A stretch of 64,000 bases of DNA, taken from positions 59 through 64,058 of the forward strand of contig JAYNLI010000004.1 in assembly GCA_038111655.1 (NCBI GenBank). The letters run 5' to 3'. Made by a program: the position numbers and the translations under genes. The stretch is from Bordetella sp. Lineage in GTDB: Bacteria > Pseudomonadota > Gammaproteobacteria > Burkholderiales > Burkholderiaceae_A. This document shows, piece after piece, positions 973 to 5,348 of the stretch. Under the pieces are notes generated by a model that was not told where the DNA came from, searched no databases, and saw nothing but the letters and a program-made list of their open reading frames with translations. Position 1 is the stretch's first letter; each line of letters opens with the position of its first letter.

Positions 973-1707
973 TTAGCCTCTTGACGGGGGTTGGCCAAAG
1001 TCAAGGTTGTTGCACTCTTCACATTCCTCTTTGAACACGCCAAGCTTCACCATTAATGCATGAATTTTGCAGCCCACGCAAAACCCTAAAACAGCCTCCA
1101 GCCACATAAAACCAAGGCAGACCCAAACCATAACAAGAGGAAGCCATCGGGGAAGGTATTGTTCCGTTGTTGGTAAGACGGGCTGTTGGAAAATCACATT
1201 AGCTATAGCGGCAAATTTTTCTGGATGAAAAAAGACGAGGCAGAGTGAAATCATGCTTGCGCCGATAACCCACGCGAAGCGCTTTGGTGCAAGCGGTTTC
1301 CATAGAGGCCTATGGTGGCGGGCGAGGAGACTCGCAAGCCATATTGTGGGAGATAAATAGCTGGTTCTGATAAACATTCCAGACACCATTTCAAGGAGGG
1401 CATAGAAGAGAACGTAGGTCTGTATGGTGTAGTCGTAGGTGCGACGTGTTGCTTCAACCATATAAAGAATGCGACCGTCGAAGTCCATGTCGTAGGTGTC
1501 ATTAATGACGTTACCCGTGACCTCCCAATGACCTCCGAAGATAATATCGAACAATGTAAATGCCATATAAACCGGAATAACTAGCATCATCCCTGCGCGA
1601 ATCTTGACTGCAGTTTCGTTAATGTAAGGGGTGAAGTCGTCTTTGCTTCTAAACCATAAAGGTCCTAGGCTGGGAAGGTTTTGTGGGGCAGACAGAGTTG
1701 TGCTCAT
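973..1707 (-). CDS. DUF4395-family inner-membrane protein with Cys-rich C-terminus
   Basis: INE..V.IRAG start, PKRFAW.IG and EAVLGFCVGC motifs, several TM segments, C-terminal CEEC; ATG at 1707 preferred over the 1809 ORF start. Confidence 0.75.
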   Translation of the reverse strand: MSTTLSAPQNLPSLGPLWFRSKDDFTPYINETAVKIRAGMMLVIPVYMAFTLFDIIFGGHWEVTGNVINDTYDMDFDGRILYMVEATRRTYDYTIQTYVLFYALLEMVSGMFIRTSYLSPTIWLASLLARHHRPLWKPLAPKRFAWVIGASMISLCLVFFHPEKFAAIANVIFQQPVLPTTEQYLPRWLPLVMVWVCLGFMWLEAVLGFCVGCKIHALMVKLGVFKEECEECNNLDFGQPPSRG

Positions 1708-1770
1708 AGCAAATGGCTCAAGGTTTAAGTGATTGAATAAGTCACACTTTGACAATAACCCTGTGGGAAG

Positions 1771-1815
1771 ACCCAACCAACTCCCGGAGGTATTACCGTC
1801 GGGAGCCAATTGGGC
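1771..1815 (-). other. Strand-specific intergenic RNA hairpin (16-bp stem with 5 G-U pairs)
   Basis: Minus-strand GCCCAAUUGGCUCCCG pairs fully with CGGGAGUUGGUUGGGU; the wobbles work only on the operon's sense strand. Confidence 0.6.
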
Positions 1816-1842: not shown

Positions 1843-3168
1843 TTAGAACTGTTTGCTGTATTGCAGACCGAAGGAGTATTGCTTCATTTCTATCGTCTCT
1901 TGAATAGTGTTTTCTGGAAGCCCGTTCAGTCGGTTAAATAGAGAACTCCCAGTAACAGAGACTTTGGGAGCATACATGGCGAACCAACTCCAATCTGACA
2001 AATCATTAATTTTATAAGTACCACCAATGGTGTAATGATCTTCCATAACGCCCGGAGCGAGAATATTAAAGGTCACGTCTTCTGCACGAATTGGGTTATC
2101 CCCTTTGTTATAGCCCACTCTCAAAATCGTCTTGTCATTAACTTGCCACTGAGCGCCTAGTTTGATGACATTAATATTTCTCCAGCCAAAACCTGAACCG
2201 GCATCGGCGCCAAGATTGGGGGTGCCAGCAGTAAATAGGCTTGTAATTGTGTTGGACGAGGCATTACTGACAGATTTGACATCTTCGTAGTTAATGGCGC
2301 TGTAATCGATTGCCACCTGAATCGCCGGACTGACTTGAATTGCAGCACCAACAGTCCAATTTGATGGGATGTCAAAATCGCCACCAGACGCAAAAAGTTC
2401 GGAGTACTTTTTAAATTTTGACATATTGATCTTAGGACTATAGCTAGCACCTACGCTGACCGTTTGGCTCACTCTTGACAGAGCACCTAAGCGCACACCG
2501 AACCCAGTGCTAGTGTCGTATCCTTGATTTGAAAGCTTTGATGTTCCCTGAGATGGGGTCATGAAAGAAAATGAATCAACTCCTACAGCTTCAAATCTTT
2601 GATACAAAAAAAGTGGGGAGAATCCGATTGAGGAGTTTTCGTTAACCTTATAAGCGGCTGTTGGAGCAATTGTTAGCTGCATTAGATCAACTCCAAGGTT
2701 TCCGGAGCCGCACATTGCATTACCGAGGCCACTGGGAATAGTATTACAGGCAAAGCTAGCTCCTCTATAGGTTGTATTCATACCCCCATTCCCATAAACC
2801 GATATTCCAACTCCGACCTTCTCAGAGAGACCCAGGTTATATGCGAATTCAGGAATTGGAAACGTCCGCTCGGAGCTCTTAACGGTTCCGGTGGTCATTG
2901 ACATGGCTGGGATACTGCGGGTTGCCGACCTATCCGGCATGAAGAAGTCTACGCCCAAGTCCCAGCGGTTTCCCACAAAGGCTGCTGCCGCGGGGTTATT
3001 GGCACCTGCAAAGGCATCTTGCGTCATGGCAACCGCCGCCCCACCCATGCCCTTGGCCTTCACGCCTATGCCGTGAGGAAAGTAGCCGTTTGTAGCGAAA
3101 GCTGATGCTCCGACCACACTCAGTGATACGGCAACAGCGAGTTGTTTGAGTTTCTGATTGCTTTTCAT
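1843..3168 (-). CDS. OmpP1/FadL/TodX-family outer-membrane channel
   Basis: Signal peptide ending AFA, hatch motif G.KAKGMGGA...NNPA, beta-barrel pattern, C-terminal Phe; strong SD GAGGAG. Confidence 0.88.
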   Translation of the reverse strand: MKSNQKLKQLAVAVSLSVVGASAFATNGYFPHGIGVKAKGMGGAAVAMTQDAFAGANNPAAAAFVGNRWDLGVDFFMPDRSATRSIPAMSMTTGTVKSSERTFPIPEFAYNLGLSEKVGVGISVYGNGGMNTTYRGASFACNTIPSGLGNAMCGSGNLGVDLMQLTIAPTAAYKVNENSSIGFSPLFLYQRFEAVGVDSFSFMTPSQGTSKLSNQGYDTSTGFGVRLGALSRVSQTVSVGASYSPKINMSKFKKYSELFASGGDFDIPSNWTVGAAIQVSPAIQVAIDYSAINYEDVKSVSNASSNTITSLFTAGTPNLGADAGSGFGWRNINVIKLGAQWQVNDKTILRVGYNKGDNPIRAEDVTFNILAPGVMEDHYTIGGTYKINDLSDWSWFAMYAPKVSVTGSSLFNRLNGLPENTIQETIEMKQYSFGLQYSKQF

Positions 3169-3219: not shown

Positions 3220-3804
3220 CTAGAACTCACCCTTGGAGGCTCGCTCCATCATTTGGTGCATGGTTTCGCGCACAGACCATGCTTCCTCTTTGAGAGGCGA
3301 GGGCAGCTTGCGCCCCATCTTGACCATCATGTCCATGTTCAGGGTATAGAGCCAGAGTCCGTCTTCTTTCTCGAGGAGCGTAATTCGGCAAGGCATGTAT
3401 GCGGCCATATGTGGGCTGAAGTCCGCCATGCGTCGAGCAATCATTGGGCTACAGTAGTTAAAGATGGTAAGGATCTTTTCCTTTTTTCCCGTCCGCTTAG
3501 CGATTTCCTCCGAAAGCGGGAGGATACCGACTTCTCGCATATTACGTTCCGTTGCTACCAGCGATAGGATCTGAGCGACGTCTTCTGCTGAAACACCTGG
3601 CTTTACTTTTCTCTCCCATGTGGTGGCGATCGCGATGTCTCCCTCGCCCTCGATCCAACGATCCCAAAGCTTCATAGCTTCAGGGCCGGCACCATCTTCA
3701 AGCTTGCTAATTGTTGCGAGCGTCCCGCAACCTGTTAGGCCAGCTATAAGTACTATCGAAGCGGCGAGTCGACTGATGAATTGAGAGTAAGAGCGTTGCT
3801 GCAT
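3220..3804 (-). CDS. DUF302-domain lipoprotein
   Basis: Lipobox LTG-C; NYCSP and AAYMPCRI motifs typical of DUF302; SD AAGGAGG. Confidence 0.8.
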   Translation of the reverse strand: MQQRSYSQFISRLAASIVLIAGLTGCGTLATISKLEDGAGPEAMKLWDRWIEGEGDIAIATTWERKVKPGVSAEDVAQILSLVATERNMREVGILPLSEEIAKRTGKKEKILTIFNYCSPMIARRMADFSPHMAAYMPCRITLLEKEDGLWLYTLNMDMMVKMGRKLPSPLKEEAWSVRETMHQMMERASKGEF

Positions 3805-3835
3805 GCTGGTGCCTCCTTGATTGAATTCTTTATAG

Positions 3836-3851
3836 ATACCCTCGGGGGTAT
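3836..3851. promoter_or_regulatory. CsoR/CstR-type operator ATACCCTCGGGGGTAT in the divergent promoter region
   Basis: 16-bp pseudo-palindrome (7/8 symmetric) of form ATACC-GC core-GGTAT, the known CsoR-family operator architecture; ~100 bp from a csoR-family gene; on the minus strand it lies between TTAATA and TATAAA hexamers. Confidence 0.8.
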
Positions 3852-3951
3852 ATTAAGATTGCGCTCTTTTTCTTGATTCTGCAAATTGCAGCGCACCATT
3901 TTTTCAGGGATTGTTGCGGTAAGTTAACAACCTTAGGTATAAAGAGCTTAA

Positions 3952-4245
3952 ATGAAGACTTTGTCATCAGACCGAGAGCGGCAGGAGCGCACCGTGATGG
4001 TCAATCGCTTGCGGCGTATAGAAGGCCAGGTGAGGGGCATAATCCAGATGATTGACCAGGGCCAAGGTTGCGAAGAGGTTGCTCAACAAATGGCTGCAAC
4101 GCGTCGTGCCCTTGAGAAGGCATACCTTCATATGATGAGCTGTTCGATTATGGAGGCAGTCGCAGATTTATCTGATGAATCGATGTTGCCCGACAAGCGC
4201 AAAGAGCTCGACCGGGTTGTTGAATTACTGCGGAAATACGCTTAA
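3952..4245 (+). CDS. CsoR/RcnR/CstR-family transcriptional repressor
   Basis: RLRRIEGQVRGI..M....C..V.QQ..A signature, 97 aa. Confidence 0.9.
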   Translation: MKTLSSDRERQERTVMVNRLRRIEGQVRGIIQMIDQGQGCEEVAQQMAATRRALEKAYLHMMSCSIMEAVADLSDESMLPDKRKELDRVVELLRKYA

Positions 4246-4292
4246 GTTACTCTGTGGTGCAAAGTTAGATTGATTTTTAAGGGGTGGCGTTT

Positions 4293-4652
4293 ATGAACCA
4301 GGTCTTTTTAAGTGGTCGGTCAAGTGTGAGTGTTCATGCAGCAGCAATTCTTTTGGGTGTTGGGCTCATGGTTATCTCGAGCTATGCTCATGCGGTTTTG
4401 TTCGCCAAGGGCAATGCAGAAATTGGGGCGAAGCTTCATGCAAAAACCTGTGCCTCCTGCCATAACTCCATGATGCCGGACGGTAAAGGCGAGGAACTCT
4501 ATTCGGAAGATTTTCGAAAGACGACTGACGCAGGTAAGCTGAAGACTATGGTTCAGTTTTGCGCTACACGCACTAATTCAGGTTGGTTTGACGAGGAAAT
4601 TGAGCATGTCTCCCGCTACCTGAATGACAACTATTACAAGTTCAAGCAGTGA
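4293..4652 (+). CDS. Periplasmic monoheme c-type cytochrome (green-heme-protein-like, candidate His/Cys ligation)
   Basis: Signal peptide ending AHA, one CASCH heme motif, distal VQFC......WFDEE...V..YLN..YYKF; alternative GTG start at 4284. Confidence 0.78.
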   Translation: MNQVFLSGRSSVSVHAAAILLGVGLMVISSYAHAVLFAKGNAEIGAKLHAKTCASCHNSMMPDGKGEELYSEDFRKTTDAGKLKTMVQFCATRTNSGWFDEEIEHVSRYLNDNYYKFKQ

Positions 4653-4706: not shown

Positions 4707-5348
4707 CTAGCGCCTGTCTTGAAGGGCGAAGTGACCTGTGAACTTACCCGCAAAGGTAACGAGCATCTCAGCACCGCTTGTGTCTGATTGAATAGAAGCA
4801 CCGGGTTGCTCAACGGGGTCGCTTGATTTCATCTGCAACAAGCCTGCTGGCCAGCTTACCTTTAGTTTTGCTGACATGGGCAGGTATCCATCAAAATAGC
4901 GTCTCATAAGGGGTCCCGCCTGAAGTTTATAGACCCCTTTTTCAGAGGTAAGCTCGAGGGCCTTTGATTGAAGACTAATGCAAATCTGGGCCCCCTTTTT
5001 CACGTTGGTAAGGGTGACTCGATGTTGTTCTGCTGCAATCGATTCAATACCCGAGTGGCTCTCAACCTTGAAATTTTTAAGCCTGTCAGGGTTAAAGGCA
5101 ATGACAACCTTGCGAATAGGGTCGAGACGGTAGTGGCATGTTAATAAAGAGACCACCCCATCTTGAAGAGATGACTCGGTTAGTAGTACTTTTGACTCAT
5201 AGTGATAGCTATTTGGGTCAGGATGTTTTGCTAAGTATTTAAGCTCCCCTTCTTTGGCAATATCGTCAAACTCTAAGGCGAAAGTTGTTGAACAACAACC
5301 TAGTGTAGCCAGGGTAAGGATAAGCAGCCGGGTGACTGGCGCGGTCAT
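4707..5348 (-). CDS. Secreted/periplasmic hypothetical protein
   Basis: 213-aa ORF with N-terminal signal peptide, two mature-region Cys, GPLMRRYFDGYLPM segment; lies 10 bp downstream of tesA. Confidence 0.7.
   Translation of the reverse strand: MTAPVTRLLILTLATLGCCSTTFALEFDDIAKEGELKYLAKHPDPNSYHYESKVLLTESSLQDGVVSLLTCHYRLDPIRKVVIAFNPDRLKNFKVESHSGIESIAAEQHRVTLTNVKKGAQICISLQSKALELTSEKGVYKLQAGPLMRRYFDGYLPMSAKLKVSWPAGLLQMKSSDPVEQPGASIQSDTSGAEMLVTFAGKFTGHFALQDRR

Follow-up and report, generated by a model that had tools for sequence, protein, structure and literature searches.

The inducer of a CsoR-family repressor is usually predicted from its W-X-Y-Z fingerprint of residues. In this work, we analysed a CsoR-family regulator encoded in a 64,000-nucleotide stretch of Bordetella sp. 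(assembly GCA_038111655.1, contig JAYNLI010000004.1, positions 59 to 64,058; the whole stretch is called the window), together with the palindromic operator found between this gene and the divergently oriented DUF302-fadL-DUF4395 genes. Persulfide sensors of this family are described as proteins of the x-C-x-C kind: all three persulfide-sensor clusters in the family-wide network of Fakhoury et al. belong to it, with clusters 6-9 being uncharacterised (PMC8643695), and a review from 2024 lists no other kind (PMC11672702). The Bordetella protein carries its second cysteine five residues earlier, and we consider it reasonably probable that it senses reactive sulfur in a manner similar to CstR, with its second cysteine displaced, and represses DUF302-fadL-DUF4395.

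Among the described systems, CstR of Staphylococcus aureus, Enterococcus faecalis, Streptococcus pneumoniae and Streptococcus mitis (sequence similarity network clusters 4 and 10; PMC8643695) resembles the regulator in its PF02583 three-helix fold, in the X-Cys at the start of helix 2 and in the missing His at position Y. Both have exactly two sensing cysteines located on one helix, leaving an inter-protomer link as the only possible one, and an operator of the ATACCC...GGGTAT type; relatives within the clade of the regulator furthermore share the sulfide-detoxification neighbours sqr, pdo and tauE. The second cysteine, however, is found at X+29 in CstR and at X+24 here, where Z is an Ala and the x-C-x-C pattern is absent, and the wedge Asn at Y of CstR is replaced by Ser or Thr. 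In addition, the host is a proteobacterium, and the target would be DUF302-FadL-DUF4395 beside sox instead of rhodanese, PDO or CoAPR genes. ScCsoR (SCO0620) of Streptomyces coelicolor (network cluster 3; PMC7533328) is likewise a CsoR-family sulfane-sulfur sensor with two cysteines, and the consensus ATACCn6GGTAT, established for its target promoters by electrophoretic mobility shift assay, is identical to the site found here. It differs in the spacing of its cysteines (C37 and C66, +29), in the persulfidation of C37 without a bridge, in its actinobacterial origin and in its targets, namely pdo, tauE and rhodanese genes. A link to Sox is known from TTHA1953 of Thermus thermophilus, a cysteine-dependent CsoR-family repressor of sox with the normal +29 spacing (C39 and C68), whose targets include cytochrome c genes as well as TTHA1730, an uncharacterised membrane protein (PMC10318464). 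In this Thermus system, a G/C tract is missing from the operator (TACNNTACNNNNGTANNGTA), the regulator gene is far from its targets, and the protein did not respond in vitro to NaHS, which was the sole reactive sulfur species tried (PMC10318464).

The Cu(I) sensor CsoR, the Ni/Co sensors RcnR and InrS and the formaldehyde sensor FrmR share the Pfam family, the fold, the X-Cys and G/C-cored palindromic operators with the Bordetella protein. In contrast, none of their ligand sets, i.e., C-H-C (CsoR), H-C-H-H (RcnR), H-C-H-C (InrS) or P-C-H-x (FrmR), is present in it, and neither metal-efflux genes nor frmA adjoin the window locus. In the same phylum, SqrR/BigR (ArsR family) and FisR perform the same physiological job, the control of sqr and pdo, in the case of SqrR/BigR also by dithiol chemistry, but their folds are unrelated to that of the regulator.

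The regulator has only two cysteines, C40 within GQG-C-EEV and C64 within HMMSC. In an alignment anchored on FrmR (C35, H60) and RcnR (C35, H60, H64) of Escherichia coli MG1655, C40 is placed on C35 of both proteins and thus occupies X, and C64 is the residue preceding Y, with Ser65 at Y (+25) and Ala69 at Z (+29). These are the residues listed in the sequence-only reading, i.e., an earlier reading of this DNA made without database searches, which had reported Cys at X, Ser at +25, Ala at +29 and an extra Cys at +24. According to the same alignment, the N-terminal His and Pro, the His at Y and a ligand at Z are all missing; the x-C-H-C or x-C-H-H pattern of Cu(I)-CsoR is therefore not found, Y being Ser, Z being Ala and H60 being unconserved.

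A point absent from that earlier reading is that H60-x3-C64 looks like the canonical H-x3-C motif placed five residues too early. HMMER indeed pairs HMMSC with the H-x3-C of InrS (H78-x3-C82) and of 6ahx by opening a 5-residue gap, and aligns the regulator to S. pneumoniae CstR and two CsoRs without any gap. We discarded the gapped register, in which H60 and C64 would be the canonical motif, since the MAFFT alignment with FrmR, RcnR and C-H-C members is gapless. The gapless HMMER alignments to CstR and the two CsoRs, a predicted helix 2 reaching up to residue 74 and the replacement of H60 by Arg in the sister subclade oppose it as well. Moreover, the tail after Z usually comprises 26-27 residues in this family, and the 28 residues C-terminal to A69 fit this length and favour the gapless register.

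In the structural model, helix 2 is of normal length and C64 is located within it, at a distance of 24 residues or about 36 Å along the helix from C40. As two cysteines 24 residues apart on one helix cannot reach each other within a chain, only an inter-protomer link is conceivable, as in CstR (PMC8643695). The conserved residues Met61 and Met62 adjoin C64 and occupy the Leu-Leu core positions of other family members. Exceptions at the +24 position are a Thr in one relative (L131) and a Ser in a paralogue of Hydrogenophaga flava.

The regulator is a member of the CsoR/RcnR superfamily. It matches Pfam PF02583 ("metal-sensitive transcriptional repressor") with an E-value of 4e-20 and 72.3 bits (gathering cut-off 22.8), and reaches none of the curated NCBIfam cut-offs for RicR, FrmR and RcnR, scoring e.g., 37.9 bits for FrmR (cut-off 133) and 31.8 bits for RcnR (cut-off 138). 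The AlphaFold2 (AF2) monomer model, with a mean confidence (pLDDT) of 83.6, predicts helices at residues 2-35, 40-74 and 76-96 and hence the three-helix protomer of about 90 aa expected for this superfamily. Foldseek comparisons of the model gave template-modelling (TM) scores of 0.73-0.88 to CstR, InrS, FrmR and CsoR, the closest structures being SpCstR (7mq1) and InrS (5fmn). It is the only PF02583 gene in the Bordetella sp. assembly, which comprises 1.66 Mb and is 89% complete. Judged by sequence, a CstR-like or ScCsoR-like protein working with a displaced second cysteine is the most likely assignment.

The displaced cysteine is not a peculiarity of this one protein. A word-based search yielded 28 relatives, a scan of the species genomes in GTDB yielded 229 loci, all in Burkholderiales (Hydrogenophaga, Tepidimonas, Serpentinimonas and Polynucleobacter-like metagenome-assembled genomes), and a profile search of 1.84 billion representatives yielded 6831 family members. 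Counts for Burkholderiales given here and below rest on the 80 loci kept of the 229. All 80 have both C40 and C64; H60 is limited to the subclade of the window, is Arg in the others and varies in the wider alignment. The latter consists of 166 sequences, namely the 28 relatives and the best 150 representatives at 50% identity, with sequences longer than 160 aa left out, and 92 of them have Cys at X and X+24 together with neither His at +25 nor Cys at +29. In a tree calculated without the fingerprint columns, the +24-Cys sequences fall into three subclades, each with an SH-like approximate likelihood ratio (SH-aLRT) support of 97. These subclades are separate from the C-H-C and C-x-C types, although support for the deep split is weak. 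The distinct subfamily proposed in the sequence-only reading is thus borne out, and is far larger than implied there. About 2.7% of 800 sampled Pseudomonadota genomes have a member of the wider clade, and our literature searches for a +24-Cys sensor of the CsoR family, or for a link between CsoR-family proteins and DUF302 or FadL, retrieved no description. On the sequence evidence, this is a sizeable proteobacterial branch that we did not find described in the literature searched. Some proteins are natural tandem fusions with two CsoR-family domains per chain (177-234 aa), in effect covalent dimers (P0045, P0053, P0077, P0089, P0102, P0118, P0142 and P0160).

The second line of evidence is the operator, a perfect palindrome of the CsoR/CstR layout which had been pointed out before and whose consensus turned out to be the same as that of the ScCsoR site (PMC7533328). 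Its sequence, ATACCC-N4-GGGTAT, is also close to the cst operator of S. mitis used in CstR binding assays (PMC8643695), so that the DUF302 promoter holds a cst-type operator. The site is located 32 nt upstream of the divergent DUF302 start codon (ATG at 3804) and 100 nt upstream of the regulator ATG. A scan of the 1.66-Mb assembly for ATACC-N6-GGTAT returned this site as the single occurrence with a G/C core, one further exact match with an A/T-rich core and no match to the reversed control pattern.

The operator is also conserved together with its gene arrangement. The regulator and DUF302-FadL are divergently arranged in about 47 of the 80 loci, and the strict pattern TACC[CGT]-N4-[CGA]GGTA is present in 34 of these 47 intergenic regions, corresponding to 2.2 sites per kb compared to 0.0145 per kb across the other 1.1 Mb, a 150-fold enrichment. 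The other 13 intergenic regions hold near-variants, which deviate by a single mismatch or by one base in the spacer. Conversely, the site is nearly absent upstream of the regulator in the 33 loci without DUF302. The arms of the palindrome do not vary among the seven closest relatives, in which the site is always placed between -35-like and -10-like AT-rich hexamers, just 5' of the DUF302 ribosome-binding site. The leftward promoter candidate of the window, TTAATA-N16-TATAAA with the operator in its spacer, is present as it had been described, and is followed by a GGAGG ribosome-binding site ahead of the DUF302 start; four relatives (L005-L008) feature TTGTCT-N17-TTTAAA at the equivalent place, again with the operator in the spacer. 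This conserved placement and the co-occurrence with DUF302 therefore assign the operator to the DUF302 promoter. Repression by occlusion of this promoter would be the simplest reading of such an architecture. With regard to the repression of DUF302-fadL-DUF4395 claimed by the sequence-only reading, the part concerning DUF302 is supported by strict or near operators in 47 of 47 intergenic regions, whereas DUF4395 belongs to the unit at three loci only.

Autoregulation of the regulator gene appears doubtful, since about 65 nt separate the operator from the likeliest promoter of this gene, which lies downstream of the site. Between the operator and the regulator gene, we observed another perfect palindrome, CTGCAAATTGCAG (3879-3900), within a block (CAAATTGCAGYGCA) conserved in seven of seven close relatives; this block may be either the promoter of the regulator itself or the site of a second factor. 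In about 25 Comamonadaceae loci (e.g., L056, L079 and L074), a conserved element TTTTTTGGCACACTC is found 60-70 nt upstream of the regulator, which is probably a T-rich UP element followed by a TTGGCA -35 hexamer and would mark a promoter of the regulator separate from the operator. A box of the FNR/CRP type, TTGAT-N4-ATCAA (e.g., TTGATATTTATCAA), located between operator and DUF302 start in seven loci (L038, L046, L048, L070, L077, L028 and L071) and not found in the window, hints at oxygen-dependent co-regulation in Comamonadaceae.

With respect to the inducer, the genomic context points to sulfur. The neighbours of the regulator in the window are soxB, DUF302, FadL, DUF4395 and a cytochrome c gene, with sqr, pdo, tauE and sulP being found only beside distant members of the clade. 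In a related locus (L004), the same genes come after soxYZAXB, its SoxB being 97% identical to that of the window. Two others (L023 and L071) show the order operator, DUF302, FadL, small cytochrome c, ArsR-type regulator, soxC, soxD, soxY, soxZ and soxA(X) on one strand, of which L028 (without FadL) and L058 are close variants. Among the 13 +24-Cys loci sampled from the 800 Pseudomonadota genomes, seven adjoin sulfur genes. The sulfur neighbours of distant gammaproteobacterial members comprise a type-III-like sqr, a persulfide dioxygenase or Blh sulfurtransferase-dioxygenase, tauE, sulP, a YeeE-like gene and soxB (TIGR04486, 852 bits), and ATAC[CT]-N6-[GA]GTAT palindromes are located in the divergent sqr/pdo promoters and upstream of the regulators at these loci. 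DUF302 itself recurs in sox clusters (PMC5037610; PMC11034169), is part of the sqr operon of Synechocystis (PMC5061849), and is combined with a CsoR-family regulator, a sulfur dioxygenase, rhodaneses and TauE in a plasmid module of Arthrobacter (PMC6305408). Taken together, the linkage to sox, sqr and pdo, the sulfur contexts of DUF302 and the precedent of TTHA1953 make a reactive-sulfur signal the best-supported inducer. Sensing of sulfur species had been part of the sequence-only reading; the support that it gains comes from the genomic context (soxB, sox clusters, and sqr/pdo with the same operator).

Several observations weigh against this assignment. No sulfur gene is found close to six of the 13 sampled +24-Cys loci, which adjoin genes for RND pumps, for a ZIP transporter, for an old-yellow-enzyme-type reductase together with a TehA-type channel, or for housekeeping functions, and most Comamonadaceae loci have no sox gene within 8 kb of DUF302-FadL. 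TTHA1953, as mentioned above, gave no response to NaHS in vitro (PMC10318464). The proposed promoter consists of weak hexamers and was not called by a consensus promoter scan because its -10 is without the final T. Finally, five genomes of Hydrogenophaga and Serpentinimonas possess the regulator, with no operator upstream and no DUF302 anywhere, and the conserved neighbour in these is a glutathione S-transferase (GST). As the regulator is kept in such genomes, it must have a target besides DUF302, which may not even be the ancestral one; the GST would possibly be an alternative target there.

These loci can be seen against a common Comamonadaceae backbone of epimerase, [FadL<-DUF302], regulator and GST. 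Throughout Hydrogenophaga, the GST (YfcF-like, under the NCBIfam cut-off) follows the regulator by less than about 50 nt (L074 8314-9604 and 37 other loci), sometimes together with a DinB-family protein. Palindromes elsewhere in the five DUF302-free genomes are few and not enriched over the reversed control. The best two are located upstream of membrane-fusion-protein genes, one of them (TACCCCCAGGGGTA) in the promoter of an operon of H. flava (L145 1685-7780), which encodes a membrane-fusion protein, an RND (resistance-nodulation-division) pump, a YgaP-like transmembrane protein and a TehA/SLAC1 channel and ends with the second PF02583 paralogue carrying Ser at +24. RND and TehA neighbours were observed again beside three members of the clade (L125, L126 and L130). 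As gene neighbourhoods are mixed in this way, we discarded the idea of one uniform function for the whole +24-Cys clade.

The same two cysteines could also serve a general sensor of thiol oxidants and electrophiles such as peroxide, disulfide stress, quinones, aldehydes or tellurite-like oxyanions, forming a plain disulfide or an adduct, with sulfur as one trigger among several. The GST that follows the regulator of Hydrogenophaga even where DUF302 is missing, sometimes with the DinB-family protein, would suit such a role, as would the old-yellow-enzyme-type reductase, TehA/SLAC1 channels and RND pumps beside other clade members, and both CstR and TTHA1953 react with H2O2 in vitro (PMC11672702; PMC10318464). 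We nevertheless regard a general oxidant sensor as rather unlikely, since the targets in the window, i.e., a periplasmic lipoprotein, an outer-membrane channel and a cytochrome beside sox, are no stress-defence set and since the recurring sqr/pdo/tauE/soxB neighbourhoods with operators in their promoters indicate sulfur in particular. It is quite improbable, furthermore, that the palindrome is chiefly bound by another factor or a paralogue and that the regulator controls something else, e.g., the downstream cytochrome or a remote gene. Such a scenario could draw on the H. flava paralogue, whose MFP-RND-YgaP_TM-TehA operon has the same type of palindrome, and on the regulators without DUF302, which have no operator upstream. 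The assembly of the window, however, has a single PF02583 gene, and the site is the standard operator of the family and co-occurs with the pairing of regulator and DUF302 in 47 loci.

Sensing of Cu(I) or another thiophilic metal would require Cys40' and Cys64, here possibly with His60, to form either a simple bis-thiolate or, five residues away from the usual position, a C...H-x3-C site. H60-x3-C64 and its gapped HMMER alignment to H78-x3-C82 of InrS give this some appeal, and so do the conserved Met61 and Met62 next to Cys64 and a family member beside copABCD on a Blastomonas plasmid. But the sister subclade, which has the same operator and DUF302 target, carries Arg instead of H60, and this residue varies elsewhere; the register obtained with FrmR, RcnR, CstR and two CsoRs is gapless, in line with the total length and the predicted helix 40-74; and Met61/62 fall on the Leu-Leu core positions of other members. 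Neither copA nor copZ nor any other metal-efflux gene is present at the locus, and no gene for an HMA domain and no CueR was found in the 89%-complete assembly. A metal sensor is hence very unlikely, and the non-copper nature predicted by the sequence-only reading holds, given the missing Y-His, the unconserved H60 and the absence of HMA-domain genes and CueR from the assembly. A formaldehyde sensor of the FrmR kind, to which the weak NCBIfam match (38 bits against a cut-off of 133) and a zinc alcohol dehydrogenase near one Hydrogenophaga homologue might allude, is hardly credible in a protein that has neither Pro2 nor a His at Y and instead a longer, variable N-terminus (MKTLSS), and at a locus with no frmA or frmB. 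The reactive-sulfur sensor with a displaced cysteine thus remains our preferred interpretation.

The features of the locus are compiled in Table 1. Within the regulated unit, DUF302 is conserved across loci at 64-92% identity, compared to 47-58% for the regulator, and its Cys motifs NYCSP and MPCR match CNP and LPC of the solved DUF302 protein TT1751. FadL follows DUF302 in about 40 loci, and DUF4395 joins the unit at three loci only (the window, L004 and L009); judged from these gene orders, the core of the unit is DUF302-FadL. No terminator was found on the minus strand between 3804 and 973, and none between the regulator and the cytochrome c gene, which is possibly co-transcribed with the regulator. 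Homologues of this cytochrome are placed after FadL in L023, L058 and L071 and directly after DUF302 in L028, which has no FadL; the gene therefore travels with the DUF302 module and not with the regulator. Next to it, on the minus strand (4707-5348), lies a gene for a 213-aa exported protein which adjoins the cytochrome in L004, too (72% identity), and has no matches in Pfam or NCBIfam.

Table 1. Annotated features of the regulator locus (positions in the window; strand where applicable).
Feature	Position	Strand	Basis or remark
soxB, 3' part, at the contig start	2..847	+	PF02872
DUF4395 inner-membrane protein, third gene of the unit	973..1809	-	PF14340; lineage-specific addition
FadL/TodX-family outer-membrane channel, second gene of the unit	1843..3168	-	PF03349
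DUF302 lipoprotein (lipobox LTGC), first gene of the regulated unit	3220..3804	-	PF03625
Candidate sigma-70 promoter of the DUF302 operon: -35 TTAATA (3856-3851), 16-nt spacer holding the operator, -10 TATAAA (3834-3829)	3829..3856	-	inferred
Operator palindrome ATACCCTCGGGGGTAT (ATACCC-TCGG-GGGTAT), 16 nt, perfect	3836..3851		sequence, conservation, ScCsoR-type consensus
CsoR-family (PF02583) repressor, 97 aa	3952..4245	+	ORF, Pfam match, AF2 model
Cys40 codon, X position, N-terminus of helix 2, proposed attacking thiol	4069..4071	+	kept in 80/80 loci, nearly invariant family-wide
Cys64 codon, displaced second Cys at X+24 = Y-1	4141..4143	+	80/80 Burkholderiales loci; 92/166 aligned relatives
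Small c-type cytochrome (CASCH), 39 nt 3' of the regulator	4284..4652	+	PF13442, 26.4 bits, slightly below cut-off

Based on this comparison, the preferred mechanism would run as follows. The reduced repressor, presumably a tetramer (a dimer of dimers in this superfamily), would bind the ATACCC-N4-GGGTAT palindrome that takes up the spacer of the DUF302 promoter, and would thereby keep DUF302-fadL-DUF4395, the envelope module joined to the sox cluster, from being transcribed. Upon a rise of sulfane sulfur in the cytoplasm, in the form of persulfides or polysulfides, Cys40 would become persulfidated at its place at the start of helix 2 and would either stay in this state or be resolved by Cys64 of the partner protomer, giving an inter-subunit di-, tri- or tetrasulfide. 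The modified repressor would then leave the DNA and allow expression of the operon. In this scheme, we infer the inducer, the bridge chemistry, the oligomeric state and the direction of regulation. The Cys-Cys bridge proposed in the sequence-only reading is plausible, but would not be required, as ScCsoR acts by persulfidation of its X-Cys alone (PMC7533328).

A more far-reaching and clearly tentative proposal is that the X/Y-1 dithiol proteins constitute a fourth class of persulfide sensors within the CsoR family, which is structurally distinct and evolved independently of the three x-C-x-C CstR clusters, and that they act as a main sensor of reactive sulfur in many Proteobacteria that oxidise sulfur. 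Among Burkholderiales, they might switch on a dedicated envelope route consisting of the FadL channel, the DUF302 lipoprotein and the DUF4395 protein or cytochrome c for the uptake or handling of hydrophobic sulfur, e.g., elemental sulfur or polysulfanes, for Sox. If true, a CsoR-type sulfur sensor would join the ArsR-type SqrR/BigR and FisR, the only sensors known for that job in this phylum. With the partner cysteine moved by five residues (about 1.4 helical turns), the same operator and neighbours such as sqr, pdo and sox, the clade represents a natural experiment on how cysteine geometry relates to reactivity and specificity. The regulator would likewise offer a regulatory handle on DUF302, the FadL-type channel and DUF4395, which are recurrent in sulfur-oxidation clusters, and an induction by defined sulfur species would be the first clue to their function.

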